A stretch of 7,757 bases of DNA from the IMG/VR virus record IMGVR_UViG_2537562190_000025; one strand, given 5' to 3'. Shown here piece by piece: positions 889 through 7,407 of the stretch. The number at the start of each line of letters is the position of its first letter. The first letter of the stretch is position 1. The notes beneath the pieces were generated by a model. The model worked only from the letters and a program-made list of their open reading frames with translations, had not been told where the DNA came from and searched no databases. Source of the DNA: a virus (taxonomy: Duplodnaviria; Heunggongvirae; Uroviricota; Caudoviricetes). A program made the position numbers and the translations under genes.

Positions 889-930
889 GTTCACAGATAA
901 AACACTCTCCAGGAAAACCGGGGCGGTTCA
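1..930 (+). mobile_element. Right-hand portion of an IS3-family insertion sequence (IS629-like); right terminal inverted repeat about 889-930
   Basis: Transposase ORF followed by 42 bp ending ...CCGGGGCGGTTCA at 930, consistent with the IS3-family 5-prime-TG...CA-3-prime termini. Its reverse complement TGAACCGCCCCGG... matches my recollection of the IS629 terminal repeat. The left end is outside the window, so the IR pair cannot be verified here. Confidence 0.7.
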
Positions 931-959
931 TTGCTTTGATTTTATTCTTATCTTTCCCA

Positions 960-1014
960 TGGTACCCGGAGCGGGACTTGAACCCGCACAGCGCGAACGC
1001 CGAGGGATTTTAAA
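960..1014 (-). other. Truncated 3-prime fragment (~55 nt) of a tRNA-Leu(UAA)-like gene: anticodon-loop 3-prime side, variable arm, T-arm, acceptor 3-prime strand and CCA. Probable att core / direct repeat of the integrated element.
   Basis: Minus-strand read: TTTAAAATCCCTCGGCGTTCGCGCTGTGCGGGTTCAAGTCCCGCTCCGGGTACCA. T-arm GCGGG-TTCAAGT-CCCGC, acceptor strand TCCGGGT, discriminator A, CCA. No D-arm or 5-prime acceptor strand (GCCCGGA expected) is present upstream, so it is not a complete tRNA. Matches recalled E. coli leuZ 3-prime half. Confidence 0.75.
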
Positions 1015-1120
1015 AACTATCAACCACCATTTATAAATCATAACATTATGATTTTATTAACTTTGAAAATGGCTCTATACAACGCCATTTGAATCTATTG
1101 TCACTTTTTATCGCCACTTT

Positions 1121-2122
1121 TTACCCTCTATTGTCAAAAGGGTTCAATTCAACAGCAGCCTCTAAATGACCTGGAGCAAAATGCGCATAACGCATAGTCA
1201 TTTTTATATCGCTATGCCCCAGTATTTTTTGCAACACAAGAATATTTCCGCCCCGCATCATAAAATGACTGGCAAACGTGTGACGTAGCACATGAGTTAA
1301 TTGCCCATCAGGAAGCTCGATCTTCGCTCTCTTAATTGCAGCGTCAAAAGCCTCATAACATGGTGAAAATAGCGCTCCTCGTTTTTTGGGAAGCATAGCC
1401 TGCAATTGAGGTGAAATCGGTACAGTGCGGTTCTTCTTTCCTTTAGTTTTAACAAATGTGATTCGACCGGGCAGTACTTGAGATTGCTTTAATCCTTCTG
1501 CTTCACTCCACCGAGCACCAGTCGCAAGCCCAATACGGACAACAACCCCCAAATCTTTATTCCGTGACTCATCACACGCAATCAGAAGGCGTTCAATCTC
1601 ATCTACATACAGAAACGCCAGTTCCTTTTCTTCCTCACGAAACTTGCGAATACCAGTCAGGGGGTTTTCACCAGACCACTCCCCAAGGCGCTTCAGTTCG
1701 GCAAAAACAGCATGTAGATATGACTGCTCGCGATTAACGGTTGCTTCACTAAGTTTTTTCTTCCCCTTGGGATTCCATTCTCCTGATAGCCTTCTTTCCC
1801 GATAAGTGGCAAACATATTTTTGTCAAACTGAGAAGCAAATGGATCTCCCAGCCTGGAACAAATCGCCTCAAGTTTGACTTTGCGCTCTGCACCAGAGGA
1901 CAAGGTTTTACCGTACATCTCAAACCAACGAGCAATCAACTCAGAAAGACGAGGACCAGAACCATCTTGAAACTCGTCTCCAACTCTACTATTCATTAAA
2001 CGGCGCTCATAAGAGAGCGCCTCACTTTTTGTCGCAAACTGTTTACGAATGCGTTTTCCCGATGCCCCGTAGGGATAACATTCGCAAAGCCATTTACCTG
2101 ATGGAATCTTACGAACCGACAT
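1121..2122 (-). CDS. int: Tyrosine recombinase / phage integrase, P2-family
   Basis: 333-aa ORF. Conserved tyrosine-recombinase boxes: GLATGARWSEA (Arg), THVLRHTFASHF (His-x-x-Arg), GHSDIKMTMRYAHFAP (catalytic Tyr). Strong resemblance to recalled P2 Int (ITFVKTKGKKNRTVPIS, LQKILGH, YAHFAP). Lies directly next to the tRNA fragment. Confidence 0.95.
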   Translation of the reverse strand: MSVRKIPSGKWLCECYPYGASGKRIRKQFATKSEALSYERRLMNSRVGDEFQDGSGPRLSELIARWFEMYGKTLSSGAERKVKLEAICSRLGDPFASQFDKNMFATYRERRLSGEWNPKGKKKLSEATVNREQSYLHAVFAELKRLGEWSGENPLTGIRKFREEEKELAFLYVDEIERLLIACDESRNKDLGVVVRIGLATGARWSEAEGLKQSQVLPGRITFVKTKGKKNRTVPISPQLQAMLPKKRGALFSPCYEAFDAAIKRAKIELPDGQLTHVLRHTFASHFMMRGGNILVLQKILGHSDIKMTMRYAHFAPGHLEAAVELNPFDNRG

Positions 2123-2127
2123 TTTAG

Positions 2128-2475
2128 TTACTTATCACATAAATCAAATGCAGCCTTAGTGACATCCCCCAGACTCTTTTTTAACCCTGGGGCGGCATCA
2201 TTATCTAGCCAAAATGGATTATTGTTATCTAACGGTAACGCACCAAATGTTTTACCTTTTATTCGAGCCAAACCTGTAAGTGCATATAACTTATTATCGT
2301 CAAAATTCATCACATAAGGATTACCATCAAGACACTGTAATTGAACCTCATCAGAATTAAATGGCCATACCCCATTGAAACTCTCACGTTCAATAGTTTT
2401 AAAAGGCATTGCGACGGCGGAAAAAGAAAACATAGATAAAAAAGTAACTAATAGTTGAACCTTTTTTACTTTCAT
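2128..2475 (-). CDS. Small secreted (signal-peptide) protein, two Cys, possibly DUF2511/YebY-like
   Basis: 115 aa. N-terminal signal peptide MKVKKVQLLVTFLSMFSFSAVA with AxA cleavage site. Strong SD (GAGGT) 6 nt upstream of ATG. Two cysteines (QLQCLDGN and DLCDK) suggest a periplasmic disulfide. Only 5 nt upstream of int, so co-transcribed. Family assignment is from memory and weak. Confidence 0.7.
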   Translation of the reverse strand: MKVKKVQLLVTFLSMFSFSAVAMPFKTIERESFNGVWPFNSDEVQLQCLDGNPYVMNFDDNKLYALTGLARIKGKTFGALPLDNNNPFWLDNDAAPGLKKSLGDVTKAAFDLCDK

Positions 2476-2504
2476 ATCATTACCTCAATTTAGCTCAAGT
2501 AAGA

Positions 2505-3155
2505 TTACAAATTAAAAAACGCCCTAGAAATGACACCGCCTACCAAAACCCCTACGCAGATAAAGAATATTATTTCTTTTGGATAAAGTCGGATTAATTC
2601 TGAAGCACGAAGTCGGACTTCTGGTAAGGTCGAACTCTCTGTGTGGCTTGATGCCGATTGTTGCTCTAACCACGACAATGCAGACTGTAACTGAGAACGA
2701 GTAAGATCGTTTAAACGTCCTGTACCGAAATTGATATGGCAATACCGCAGAAGTTTTTGTCGAAGTCCACAGTCTTCACTGTTACGTAGTAATAAACTTA
2801 CAAGAGCCTTACAGGCATCATGATCTTTACATCGCTCAAGCATTGCATGCAGAAAACTCTCCGCTGTTTTATATTGATTTACTGTCATATCATCAATACC
2901 AGCTACACCAATCTCCGCATGTACTTTTTGCCAAATAATAAACGCTTCAGTATTGCTAGCTTCTGCAATAGCAGCAACCAAGCTATTTAGCTCCTTACGC
3001 TGAGCCTTAAGCAAAGGGCGATCGTCATCATCATTATTCGAAGGGATTGCGATATTGACAGTATGAGAACCATCATATCGCTCTATCTGAATATTCTTTT
3101 CGTGAAAATCACGCCCAGCAACGCGATTGTTTGAACCGTTTGAGTTGACGGCCAT
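2505..3155 (-). CDS. Hypothetical tail-anchored membrane protein (soluble ~190-aa N-terminal domain plus single C-terminal TM helix)
   Basis: 216 aa. Strong SD GGAGGTGAC before ATG. C-terminal hydrophobic stretch IIFFICVGVLVGGVISRAFF. N-terminal segment GSNNRVAGRDFHE repeats a motif found at the C-terminus of the upstream repressor. No recognisable catalytic motif. Confidence 0.75.
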   Translation of the reverse strand: MAVNSNGSNNRVAGRDFHEKNIQIERYDGSHTVNIAIPSNNDDDDRPLLKAQRKELNSLVAAIAEASNTEAFIIWQKVHAEIGVAGIDDMTVNQYKTAESFLHAMLERCKDHDACKALVSLLLRNSEDCGLRQKLLRYCHINFGTGRLNDLTRSQLQSALSWLEQQSASSHTESSTLPEVRLRASELIRLYPKEIIFFICVGVLVGGVISRAFFNL

Positions 3156-3170
3156 GTCACCTCCCTACTA

Positions 3171-3575
3171 TCACCTACCCTTAGTTTCGTTATAGTCACG
3201 ACCAGCGATACGGTTATTACCACCAGAAATATTTAACTCACGTCCTGATGGCTGAGTTTCCTTTTCACTGATCGCACCTTTTAAAGCCCCAATCACCGCG
3301 TTTTTCACATCTAACGAAGCTGCTCGAAAGCGAGTAATCAACTCCTGCTCATCATCGTTATAAGTTTCAGGTGAGTGAATTCCCAACACAACATACTGAA
3401 CATCAAGGCCAAAACGAGACAGCGCTGCCAAATACGCAGCATCAGGAAAGCTATCTCCTTTCTCATATCTAAGCTGAGTTAGCTTTTTGACTCCACCAAT
3501 GTCGCTCATGGCAACTTGACTAAGTCCCAATCTTTCCCTTTCCTCACGCAACCGCTGACCAATATCATTTTTCAT
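3171..3575 (-). CDS. XRE-family (Cro/CI-type) helix-turn-helix transcriptional regulator; probable immunity repressor
   Basis: 134 aa. N-terminal HTH (IGQRLREERERLGLSQVAMSDIGGVKKLTQLRYEKGDSFP). Placed at the head of the leftward operon, divergent from the rightward early operon, as for P2 C / 186 CI. C-terminal tail carries the GGNNRIAGRDYNE motif. Confidence 0.85.
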   Translation of the reverse strand: MKNDIGQRLREERERLGLSQVAMSDIGGVKKLTQLRYEKGDSFPDAAYLAALSRFGLDVQYVVLGIHSPETYNDDEQELITRFRAASLDVKNAVIGALKGAISEKETQPSGRELNISGGNNRIAGRDYNETKGR

Positions 3576-3650
3576 ACAAAAACCTTGATAGGTATCTTTT
3601 TTGATACCAAAATGATTTCACGAGCTATTAGATGATCACAATATACCACT
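3576..3650. promoter_or_regulatory. Divergent promoter/operator region between repressor and rightward operon
   Basis: 75-bp AT-rich intergenic region. Palindrome GGTATC-TTTTTT-GATACC (3591-3608) overlapped by two TTGATA hexamers (3585-3590 and 3601-3606) that resemble -35 elements. Confidence 0.5.
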
Positions 3651-3857
3651 ATGAAACAAGTTCTTCACGATACCAGATCACGCATTCCGCGTAACACCGC
3701 CACAGGTCCAAGACTGGCACTTCGGCTGTCCCTTGAGGAGCGAGCCGTCATTGATGAAATGGCAGCTAAAGAACAACGCTCATCCTCTAACATGGCGCGC
3801 ATGATCTTCCTTCGCGGCCTAGAGCTAACCCAGAAAGAACAAAACAAATCTTCCTGA
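3651..3857 (+). CDS. Small ribbon-helix-helix-like DNA-binding protein (CopG/Arc-like), first gene of the rightward operon
   Basis: 68 aa. Segment RLALRLSLEERAVIDEMAAKEQRSSSNMARMIFLRGLE fits the RHH beta-strand/helix pattern. No clear SD, so possibly leaderless or the start is misplaced. Overlapping minus-strand ORF 3665-3847 judged spurious. Confidence 0.5.
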   Translation: MKQVLHDTRSRIPRNTATGPRLALRLSLEERAVIDEMAAKEQRSSSNMARMIFLRGLELTQKEQNKSS

Positions 3858-3873
3858 TCAGGAGGCTAGTGGG

Positions 3874-4077
3874 ATGTCAGGTATAACCATCAATATCAAT
3901 GTGAATGCCCCCTATGTATCCCTGCAGAAATATGCAGAGATAACAGGTATCCCTCTTAATACGTGCAAAAAGATGTTGGCTGACGGTCGAATTATTATCC
4001 GCCCCAAACGCGCCAAAATGGAAAAGCCTGAAGTAAACCTTGTGGCGATGTTAAAAGACGCTTTGGCTAACAGCTAA
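3874..4077 (+). CDS. Cox/excisionase-like small HTH DNA-binding protein
   Basis: 67 aa. Strong SD (AGGAGG) upstream. Segment PYVSLQKYAEITGIPLNTCKKMLADGRIIIR resembles recalled P2 Cox (IPYQEFAKLIGKSTGAVRRMIDKGKLPVI). Position is the same as cox/apl in P2/186-type elements. Confidence 0.6.
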   Translation: MSGITININVNAPYVSLQKYAEITGIPLNTCKKMLADGRIIIRPKRAKMEKPEVNLVAMLKDALANS

Positions 4078-4098
4078 AACAATGAACAGAGCACCATC

Positions 4099-4449
4099 AT
4101 GAAAAAAAACGCTAATAATCCATACTCCAAATTTCGTAATGGCGTAGAACGCCATGTACACCACGTCGCTACCAGTGCATCACGTAGTAACAGTCGCTAT
4201 AACCTGAACGAGACGCACGCAACACCGGATGGCCACGCTGTAAAACAAATCGGCGAGCATGCCTGGCTGATTGAGAAAGCTGGAATCGTGGTCCACAAAT
4301 GCCCACGCAATCCGTTTACCGGAAACCGCATTTTTGCATTGAACTGCGGCGACAATCACTTCGGGCAGGATTTCACATTATACGAAGCACTTCGCACGGT
4401 TGATCGTCTGCTTCGCGGGCAAAGTTTTATTAAACAGGCTGATTTATAA
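4099..4449 (+). CDS. Hypothetical protein
   Basis: 116-aa ORF in operon context with coding-like composition; weak SD. No motif recognised. Confidence 0.55.
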   Translation: MKKNANNPYSKFRNGVERHVHHVATSASRSNSRYNLNETHATPDGHAVKQIGEHAWLIEKAGIVVHKCPRNPFTGNRIFALNCGDNHFGQDFTLYEALRTVDRLLRGQSFIKQADL

Positions 4450-6392: not shown

Positions 6393-6714
6393 GAAACCAG
6401 AACATGCACACACAAAAAAACCGCTTGCCATGCCGCAATCAGTCAGGTTACATTTCCGCTGCACCTCATAAAACGGGTGCCGGGATTCTCAACCCGATAC
6501 AGAGCAAAGCGCATAACCGCGCCAGCGGTTTTTTTGTGCGTACTGTATTGCCACGTCTTTTTCGCGTCAGAATTATGGCGGGGCGTACGGGGCCGACTTC
6601 GGTCGGGCCGGATTCTTTGCTCTCCGGTGTTGAGAACCCTGTACGTCTCGCCACCCCGAGATTCTCAACTCTGGATGGTGAGCTATTTCTATCACCGAGC
6701 AAAGAGGCCACACC
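6393..6714 (+). other. Structured GC-rich non-coding island inside the rightward operon (candidate ncRNA / regulatory leader)
   Basis: No convincing coding frame. Contains the terminator-like hairpin (6515-6535), a stable UUCG-type tetraloop hairpin GGCCGAC-TTCG-GTCGGGCC (6591-6609), and three copies of GATTCTCAAC / GTTGAGAA (6485-6494 direct, 6629-6636 inverted, 6661-6670 direct). Confidence 0.35.
6515..6535 (+). terminator. Candidate intrinsic terminator (short GC stem plus T7 run)
   Basis: AACCGC-GCCA-GCGGTT followed by TTTTT (T-run 6529-6535). Stem is only ~6 bp, so weak to moderate. Confidence 0.4.
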
Positions 6715-7017: not shown

Positions 7018-7407
7018 ATGATTGACGCTCATGACTTCACAAGATGGGTGCGCACACAGGACACCCGTCTGGCTCCCGTTCTTCAGGGATTATTTGATCT
7101 CTACATCCGTGGTCGTGACAACAGAGCACGCACCACAAAACCAGAGAATGCAGACACCCTTTATTTCACAGTAGACGACTGCTACCGCGTGGACTTCACA
7201 CCACACGGGCTGGCGTTGCACTGCCTGACACCACACGGAGAATCACTGCTGGCGTATTACGACTCCCCGGCCTCCGTATTTGCGGCAATGCTGGCGCATC
7301 GCACTGCTGGCGGGTGTGCCTCGCTGAGTGAATACACCGCTGAATTTAACCGCCTTTCTGCCCTCTTCTCGCAGGAGTGGCAGCGCGTGACAGGATACCA
7401 GCCATGA
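7018..7407 (+). CDS. Hypothetical protein
   Basis: 129 aa. AAGAGA SD-like sequence upstream. Stop overlaps the next start (ATGA at 7404-7407). Confidence 0.55.
   Translation: MIDAHDFTRWVRTQDTRLAPVLQGLFDLYIRGRDNRARTTKPENADTLYFTVDDCYRVDFTPHGLALHCLTPHGESLLAYYDSPASVFAAMLAHRTAGGCASLSEYTAEFNRLSALFSQEWQRVTGYQP

Follow-up and report, generated by a model that had tools for sequence, protein, structure and literature searches.

A repressor/Flk_N gene pair with matched tails and a variable cargo slot beside the integrase gene of a P2-like prophage

What is the role of two additional genes that lie between the repressor gene and the integrase gene (int) of a P2-like prophage? The question is raised by a 7,757-nucleotide (nt) stretch of Caudoviricetes DNA (IMG/VR record IMGVR_UViG_2537562190_000025; hereafter the window), whose minus strand carries, in this order, the genes for a repressor, a 216-amino-acid (aa) protein, a 115-aa protein and the integrase. 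The gaps between their open reading frames (ORFs) are 15, 29, and 5 nt, in exact agreement with the initial annotation of this DNA. There, the 216-aa and the 115-aa proteins were regarded as one two-gene exclusion or defence system, carried as cargo between repressor and int. The constant presence of the first gene beside the repressor and the independent variation of the second point to two separate things and not to one module. The best explanation, to which we assign a probability of about one half, combines a conserved immunity cassette, in which the repressor and the 216-aa protein would be coupled through similar tails, with an independent, swappable cargo gene represented here by the 115-aa gene.

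The repressor, its constant neighbor and their matched tails

The repressor gene is divergent from a rightward early operon which opens with Arc-like and Cox-like genes (PHROG), and this arrangement places the helix-turn-helix (HTH) gene at the position of an immunity repressor. Its product matches the Pfam HTH_31/HTH_3 and PHROG repressor families and consists of an HTH domain (residues 1–64), two more helices (residues 74–105) and a disordered tail (residues 105–134), for which the AlphaFold2 (AF2) model has a predicted local distance difference test (pLDDT) value of ~45. Its structural matches in Foldseek are P22 C2, SinR (1b0n) and P2 C. No minus-strand terminator-like site was found in a sequence scan of positions 900–4100, which makes co-transcription of the repressor with the downstream genes, and a single transcript running from repressor to int, plausible; promoter-like sites occurred in the same scan at background frequency only.

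The 216-aa protein encoded next to the repressor matches the NCBIfam Flk profile (E = 8.6e-16; residues 37–166 to profile positions 20–149 of 339), but its score of 58.1 bits lies far below the equivalog cutoff of 353 for full-length Flk (NF007987). Judged by these profile scores, it is a domain relative and not an orthologue of Flk. The Pfam family PF27202 (Flk_N) is precomputed for its 98%-identical homologue P0001 and for nearly all other homologues, and phrog_5825 also matches the 216-aa protein. Residues 1–45 are disordered in the AF2 model (pLDDT ~57) and precede a compact helical domain (Table 1). The only hydrophobic segment lies at the extreme C-terminus, where the Kyte-Doolittle profile (19-residue window) reaches its maximum of 2.36 at residues 195–213; together with the AF2 helix at this position, this bears out the single C-terminal transmembrane (TM) anchor of the initial annotation. 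The helix is preceded by K/R residues and contains two glycines, G202 and G206, that are conserved in the family. The predicted topology is that of a protein tail-anchored in the inner membrane with its N-terminal part in the cytoplasm.

In its Flk_N domain, its cytoplasmic N-terminal part and its C-terminal tail anchor, the phage protein resembles Flk (Fluke/RflH) of Salmonella and E. coli. The host protein faces the cytoplasm, is tail-anchored and forms an inhibitory part of the flagellar export switch, helping to hold the export gate in its early state (PMC13344023). Unlike the phage protein, Flk is ~330 aa long, has two matched stretches, is encoded on the chromosome and acts on flagellar type III secretion, and its N-terminus is of the MQP.SGPG type, without the AGRD motif of the phage protein.

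The association between the two genes is constant. A co-oriented, tail-bearing HTH ORF ends 2–18 nt upstream of the Flk_N gene in 80/80 IMG/VR loci, which correspond to 49 distinct repressor/Flk_N pairs, and the order of the two genes is kept in all other examined loci too, across more than 12 genera and in both P2-like and Mu-like phages. The pairing is found in Klebsiella, Citrobacter, Enterobacter, Rosenbergiella, Mixta, Izhakiella, Hafnia, Serratia, Arsenophonus, and Salmonella, as well as in Mu-like phages of Pectobacterium, Gilliamella, Pseudomonas, and Ralstonia. In the Mu-like cassettes, int is absent, the flanks are made up of transposase and lysis genes and other cargo follows the cassette. 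A repressor relative which lacks the tail (P0316) has other genes downstream and no Flk_N gene. The Flk_N gene is therefore a constant companion of this repressor family and not cargo. The initial annotation had itself named fixed synteny in related elements as evidence against its reading, and for the 216-aa gene such synteny was found in every element examined.

Variants of the arrangement were also encountered. In an E. coli P2-like prophage (L022, 3501–4632), a tail-less repressor relative is followed by a 117-aa Cys-rich protein and then by a different, 140-aa coiled-coil protein that has a membrane anchor at its C-terminus, which may be an analogous but unrelated membrane partner. Salmonella enterica L038 (767–2801) carries three tandem HTH repressor paralogues upstream of the Flk_N gene, two of them with a complete NRVAGRDYNEKK tail and the third with the degenerate tail ISDTGNNENK. 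Decayed copies occur in a Symbiopectobacterium endosymbiont (L015), with a Flk_N ORF lacking the N-terminal motif, the repressor tail AGNNFHE and a split int, and in Gilliamella (L028), where the Flk_N gene is broken into fragments of 53 and 92 aa.

The two neighboring products resemble each other at their facing ends. The repressor ends in …ELNISGGNNRIAGRDYNETKGR and the Flk_N protein begins with MAVNSNGSNNRVAGRDFHEK…, and the two tails have in common a ~17-residue, G/N-rich motif of the form …GNRφAGRDφNE…. Their local alignment reaches a score of 62, compared with a mean of 20.7 for shuffled sequences (z = 9.4), and none of 2000 shuffles scored as high. The family alignment shows no variation at G7, N10, R11, G14, D16, and E19 of the Flk_N tail. 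No third copy of the motif is present within the 43-kb locus of the same prophage.

Table 1. Positions of the main features of the repressor–int region in the window
Feature	Position	Strand	Basis or detail
Tyrosine integrase (int), 333 aa, last gene of the leftward block	1121–2122	−	Pfam Int_N and Phage_integrase
Secreted YebY/DUF2511-family protein, 115 aa	2128–2475	−	ORF list
Tail-anchored Flk_N-domain protein, 216 aa	2505–3155	−	ORF list
C-terminal transmembrane tail anchor of the Flk_N protein, residues ~192–215	2511–2582	−	Hydropathy and AF2 helix 192–215
Flk_N helical domain, residues 46–173, five helices	2637–3020	−	AF2, pLDDT 94–98
N-terminal tail motif of the Flk_N protein, residues 4–19, NSNGSNNRVAGRDFHE	3099–3146	−	Family alignment
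Spacer of 15 nt, repressor to 216-aa gene	3156–3170	−	In-frame stops TGA TAG TAG (two beyond the first), then GGGAGG ribosome-binding site
Xre-type HTH repressor, 134 aa	3171–3575	−	ORF list
C-terminal tail motif of the repressor, residues 115–130, NISGGNNRIAGRDYNE	3186–3233	−	Local alignment; kept in repressor homologues

Two trivial sources of the similarity can be excluded. At the DNA level, only 27/45 nt of the two motif copies are identical and identical residues are specified by different codons, which indicates that the motif is conserved at the protein level and excludes a DNA-level repeat or recent gene conversion. A read-through or frameshift fusion of the repressor and the Flk_N protein is likewise excluded, by the three consecutive stops between the genes and by the arrangement in relatives, where the two genes lie in different frames or overlap (gaps of 8, 11, or 17 nt, or an overlap of 4 nt).

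Four types of the motif were distinguished. Type A (G.GNRφAGRD[YF].E) is found in the P2-like prophages of Enterobacterales and one metagenomic contig, type B (QQF.G.V..V..GD[VI].N) in one Mu-like metagenomic contig and Pseudomonas aeruginosa, type C (Q[IE]FNG…GQF…IIN) in Pectobacterium and the weaker type D (EQIAG..IY) in Gilliamella. Both partners change motif type together in at least three of the four types, and the similarity of cognate tails across pairs corresponds to z = 4.4–11.8 against shuffles. The matrix of tail scores is block-diagonal by type, with values of 43–69 within type A, 38–47 within type B and 50 for type C as opposed to 13–30 across types, and the repressor bodies are 41–82% identical across motif types. 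Cognate tails are thus more alike than non-cognate ones, which is not expected under neutral divergence from one matched ancestor, and the matching must have been maintained or repeatedly re-created.

These observations also bear on the simplest account of the tails, in which their similarity merely survives, without function, from a local duplication and the Flk_N protein is a conserved membrane protein unrelated to the repressor. The two motifs are only ~90 nt apart, a distance over which duplication is mechanistically easy. A relic should decay, yet the match persists across more than 12 genera and has been re-established in at least three divergent motif types; in addition, the codons of the two copies have diverged and the tail-less repressor lineage lacks the partner. 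We consider such an origin without function extremely unlikely.

The tails also differ in composition from the rest of the proteins. G, N, Q, V, and I together account for a fraction of 0.44–0.46 in the tails vs. 0.27–0.28 in the bodies, and K, P, and L for 0.06–0.08 vs. 0.20–0.21; individually, N and G are strongly enriched, I is enriched, L and P are depleted and Q is not enriched. In Ralstonia phage YO107_2 (L041, ~1656–3708), the motif occurs on three consecutive products, namely at the C-terminus of the repressor (MQVFHQAPTGDIFGRDLV) and at the N-termini of a 285-aa protein with Flk_N, coiled-coil and TM segments (KQEFSGPVGDVAGRDIIN) and of a small three-TM protein (RQDFHGPVGQVAGRDIIN). 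In its distribution, the motif behaves like a portable tag.

Proposed coupling through the tails and alternative explanations

From the geometry of the gene pair, the disorder and composition of the tails and their matching by type, we infer a direct, homotypic coupling of the repressor to the Flk_N protein, which is taken as the best-supported mechanism. The two tails would pair homotypically in a β-type association, possibly with an amyloid-like templating analogous to that of BASS/HET-S-type gene pairs, and the membrane protein would capture, nucleate or release the repressor. The activity, location or stability of the repressor could in this way be set at the inner membrane, and immunity could be tuned or switched, for example through an SOS-independent route of derepression or through buffering of free repressor.

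Bacterial amyloid signaling sequence (BASS) motifs were described in filamentous bacteria as stretches of ~25 aa which are rich in Q/N/G/V/I and poor in K/P/L (10.1101/2020.01.06.895854). In Bab/Agp (BASS11), an abortive infection system borne by E. coli prophages, adjacent genes share an amyloid motif, which one product carries at its C-terminus and the other at its N-terminus and through which they signal (10.1101/2024.11.07.622273). As in the known amyloid-signaling pairs (bacterial BASS pairs of a Bell-domain effector and an NLR, Bab/Agp, fungal HET-S/NWD2), the genes of the present cassette are adjacent and co-oriented, and the first product has the motif C-terminally, the second N-terminally. 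In monomers, the motif is disordered, and it is enriched in G/N/V/I and depleted in K/P/L; its type is matched within a pair and differs between pairs, and more than two neighboring products can carry it. One partner is membrane-associated, and Bab/Agp likewise resides in a prophage. Unlike in these pairs, however, the first product here is a DNA-binding repressor and not a pore-forming effector, and the second is a small tail-anchored Flk_N protein and not an NLR/STAND or tetratricopeptide repeat sensor. The cassette is thus a case of amyloid-pair logic built from different components.

Several points weigh against direct coupling of the tails. The shared core comprises only ~17 residues and is rich in charged residues, as opposed to the ~25 residues of described BASS motifs. 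NLR/STAND sensors and Bell/HeLo-type effectors are absent from the pair, and the AF2 monomer models of both tails are without β structure. The type D match is weak (score 33, z = 4.4, 6/2000 shuffles as high). Within type A, no position-by-position covariation between the partners is evident in the listed pairs, for which reason the claim is restricted to co-switching at the level of motif types. No natural HTH-Flk_N fusion was found among 92 representatives, and the tail-less control (P0316) represents one lineage only. Finally, the matched tails could be explained equally well by a common third binding factor.

The last point leads to the main rival of direct coupling, a shared degron or third partner. 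Here, both tails would be read by the same host protease, adaptor (FtsH, ClpXP, Lon) or chaperone, and the Flk_N protein would serve as a decoy or competitor which sets the stability of the repressor. Such interplay is familiar from phage λ, in which CIII protects CII from FtsH, and the Mu repressor has a C-terminal ClpX determinant. Both tails are terminal, disordered and exposed like protease tags, and that of the Flk_N protein is predicted to be positioned at the cytoplasmic face of the membrane. A host-encoded reader should, however, hold the motif constant within each host clade, whereas several motif types co-switch inside cassettes with conserved protein bodies, a behavior better suited to partners which read each other. 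The composition of the tails, rich in G/N and poor in L/P, is, to our knowledge, not typical of known ClpX or FtsH tags. On balance, a shared reader of this kind seems unlikely.

With its C-terminal tail, which looks regulatory, the repressor recalls that of Mu, and with its HTH domain and helical extension it resembles SinR of the SinR/SinI pair (Foldseek 1b0n). In contrast to both, the candidate partner is here membrane-anchored and bears a copy of the repressor tail.

The signal could also run in the opposite direction, from the repressor to the membrane. The Flk_N protein, joined in some phages by further motif-tagged membrane proteins, would then be an exclusion or abortive infection effector which is guarded by the repressor and armed by a change in the repressor tail, for instance upon attack by the antirepressor of an incoming phage. 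This is compatible with the location of the genes on the lysogenic side, with the N-terminal motif on the small three-TM protein of Ralstonia phage YO107_2, with defence cargo that can adjoin the cassette (the TIR-TM gene described below) and with the precedent of Bab/Agp, in which amyloid-motif signaling drives a membrane-acting abortive infection effector in E. coli (10.1101/2024.11.07.622273). The geometry is reversed, however, as known pairs have the motif C-terminally on the membrane effector and N-terminally on the sensor. A lone C-terminal anchor with almost no periplasmic part makes a poor pore candidate, PADLOC yields no matches, and the fixed tie to one repressor family suggests regulation and not a portable defence gene. 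A guarded effector is therefore quite unlikely.

An extreme form of direct coupling would be a prion-type immunity switch, in which a membrane-proximal trigger converts the repressor tail to an aggregated state and thereby causes an all-or-none, self-propagating inactivation or relocalization of the repressor, or in which a reverse signal arms membrane effectors. This version is quite doubtful on the present evidence.

The cargo slot next to the integrase gene

The 115-aa protein also belongs to a known family. It matches Pfam PF10709 (YebY/DUF2511) with 28.2 bits against a gathering cutoff of 21 (E = 2.6e-6; residues 28–113 to profile positions 2–87 of 87), a match which is also precomputed for its homologues, and it shows a weak sequence match to the YebY structure 7n0j in the PDB (E = 0.0028). 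A hydrophobic signal peptide covers residues 1–22 (nt 2410–2475) and ends in AVA at residues 20–22, and there are exactly two cysteines, C48 and C113, so that the signal-peptide protein with two cysteines of the initial annotation is borne out. At the sequence level, W37, C48, and C113 coincide with the conserved Trp and disulfide cysteines of YebY, in which Trp37 and a Cys48-Cys113 disulfide were described; the same study noted members of the DUF2511 family between a recombinase and a phage repressor in Enterobacteriaceae (PMC8689200). The protein can thus be regarded as an addition to a known family, in a context that is already in print, and it is a predicted periplasmic, disulfide-stabilized small protein carried as cargo. 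It resembles YebY (7n0j) and MlbQ in its PF10709 match, its signal peptide, the positions of Trp and disulfide cysteines and its size. It differs from them in that its gene lies between the phage Flk_N gene and int and not in the yobA-yebZ-yebY copper operon, in the lack of a lantibiotic gene context and in its weak match to E. coli YebY. The DUF2511 protein would be expressed from the lysogenic transcript and exported via Sec, and may act as a small periplasmic ligand- or protein-binding conversion factor; by analogy with MlbQ, it could guard against an envelope-targeting agent, independently of the cassette.

Among the 49 distinct IMG/VR pairs, the slot between the Flk_N gene and int holds DUF2511 in 17 cases, BRCT/WYL proteins in nine, DUF8087 in eight, a TM protein (TM244) in one and other ORFs in eight, and in six it is empty or its content truncated; 32/49 pairs are thus without DUF2511. 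DUF2511 occupies the slot in E. coli, Rosenbergiella, Klebsiella, and Citrobacter; other E. coli, Izhakiella, and Symbiopectobacterium have DUF8087 there, and Klebsiella and Enterobacter a BRCT/WYL-like protein of 288–292 aa. A 314-aa TM+WYL protein is found in E. coli N1420 and a membrane protein of 242–244 aa in Mixta and Hafnia. Salmonella has a 440-aa protein with TM segments in its N-terminal part and a BRCT-like stretch at its C-terminus, and the slot is empty in Serratia and Arsenophonus. At least six alternative contents therefore occur on otherwise similar prophages, and in Klebsiella prophages at the same pgsA/uvrC flank the slot contains either DUF2511 or a BRCT/WYL protein. The slot is a small cargo hotspot of P2-like prophages, of which the DUF2511 gene is the occupant here. 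The cargo position beside int that had been proposed for both genes was accordingly recovered, as a variable slot on the lysogen side, for the 115-aa gene, and not for the 216-aa gene, which stands with the repressor in 80/80 loci.

The proteins with BRCT and/or WYL-like parts (L002, L013, L037, L038) are the second most frequent occupants and show shuffled architectures; they have no significant PADLOC match and are candidate regulators or defence genes. In Mu-like phages, the cargo behind the cassette includes lipoproteins, a 267-aa membrane protein and one TIR-TM gene. The latter follows a lipoprotein gene in the Mu-like contig L020 (4597–5862) and matches PADLOC TIR-TM with E = 4e-103, which indicates that recognized defence genes do land beside this cassette.

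The slot agrees with the minor “integrase to primase” hotspot reported for P2-like prophages (PMC13586616) and shares its alternative contents with the accessory and defence hotspots of these elements (PMC9122126; PMC13586616), of which kind it is an instance. In contrast to these, whose main sites are at other positions (GpA to GpQ, tail region), the present slot is mostly occupied by genes that are not recognized as defence genes.

The evidence on the slot also speaks against a joint two-gene exclusion or defence system. Such a system would be in keeping with the 29-nt spacing of the two genes in the same operon, with the predicted location of one product facing the cytoplasm and of the other in the periplasm, and with the presence of prophage-type DUF2511 directly after a Flk_N gene in 4/4 checked lineages. 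This subfamily was seen only downstream of Flk_N genes in the four lineages, which weighs against the independence of the cargo gene, and from its position there may be a functional link between DUF2511 and Flk_N. The Flk_N gene, however, has many other neighbors or none, its synteny with the repressor is fixed while the 115-aa gene comes and goes, it occurs in Mu-like phages without int and with other cargo behind it, and in the Klebsiella prophages at the pgsA/uvrC flank DUF2511 is exchanged for BRCT/WYL. Matches to defence families are also lacking. PADLOC-DB 2.0 returned zero families for either protein at E ≤ 1, in agreement with the earlier statement that no motif of a known defence family is present; both proteins can nonetheless be assigned to families, Flk_N (PF27202) and YebY/DUF2511 (PF10709). 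Pfam and PHROGs searches with both proteins found only families of unknown function and no defence or exclusion match. As one module, the two genes are largely refuted by the synteny data, and a joint system is very unlikely.

Phage λ rexAB and sieB, P22 sieA and HK97 gp15 are lysogen-expressed exclusion genes which lie next to repressors and have membrane-located products. The genes described here are like them in their position on the lysogenic transcript and in membrane location. They show no sequence or profile similarity to them, and these exclusion genes are accessory, in contrast to the Flk_N gene with its fixed tie to a repressor family across phage types.

The higher AT content of the two-gene block relative to the rightward operon is real and is mostly due to the 115-aa gene, which has the lowest GC fraction of the window (0.353) as compared to 0.412 for the 216-aa gene, 0.440 for the repressor gene, 0.451 for int and 0.499 for the rightward operon.

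The prophage, its distribution and the significance of the cassette

The element adjoins yecA; it is a P2-like prophage and carries genes for portal, terminase, P2-family capsid and GpA. The same DNA is present in 599/5426 complete E. coli genomes (~10%), among them O103:H2 strains, and O157:H7 strains also carry the cassette together with the DUF2511 gene. The sole deposited phage with close copies of both genes among 50,697 genomes is Escherichia phage 520873 (NC_049344/CP025923), of which H26/H27 and H31/H32 are two records. Both gene matches in this phage are in three pieces, which points to sequencing errors or frameshifts. Genomes frequently contain prophages of this immunity type, which are seldom recovered as phage isolates.

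The window contains several further features outside the region of Table 1. Positions 1–923 comprise an insertion sequence (IS) with an IS629/IS3-family transposase ORF (1–888), in which Rfam detects an ALIL frameshift pseudoknot (60.4 bits). Identity to the IS-free reference prophage starts at ~924, which places the IS ~35 nt outside a tRNA-Leu-like att core (~958–1015), where ARAGORN detects no intact tRNA. On the plus strand, Rfam matches at gathering level correspond to the Hfq-binding small RNA isrK (6461–6535, 62.8 bits) and to the C4 antisense RNA (6571–6658, 78.5 bits; clan CL00128). The two matches fall within the early operon just upstream of an ORF at 7018–7407 (phrog_3237) and suggest a second, RNA-based regulatory layer in the prophage. 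The plus-strand ORF at 3651–3857 is matched along its entire length by the Arc-like repressor family phrog_3431 (E = 1e-28). In its place, RefSeq annotates a 45-aa minus-strand ORF (3665–3802) without a PHROG match, which is probably a mis-annotation of the first early gene.

The literature search found no paper tying Flk-like proteins, DUF2511 or amyloid motifs to phage repressors, and no description of a repressor/Flk_N cassette with matched tails turned up in the papers searched. The slot next to int represents a compact hunting ground for new lysogenic-conversion and defence genes, as exemplified by the BRCT/WYL proteins, DUF8087 and the phage YebY protein. For the regulation of lysogeny, a membrane protein which is locked to a repressor and bears a copy of its tail is a concrete and easily tested candidate immunity regulator. 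Classical P2 is not SOS-inducible, and the way in which many P2-like prophages leave lysogeny is therefore unclear. Any influence of the cassette on the stability of prophages would matter for pathogen genomes, as ~10% of complete E. coli genomes carry it, O157:H7 and O103:H2 strains among them. If the tails indeed pair, the design of matched terminal motifs would extend from cell-death effectors to transcriptional control, and to unicellular Enterobacterales and their phages. A prion-type switch, if true, would be the first amyloid-signaling pair to control a transcription factor and would provide a route of derepression for P2-like and Mu-like prophages which are not SOS-inducible.

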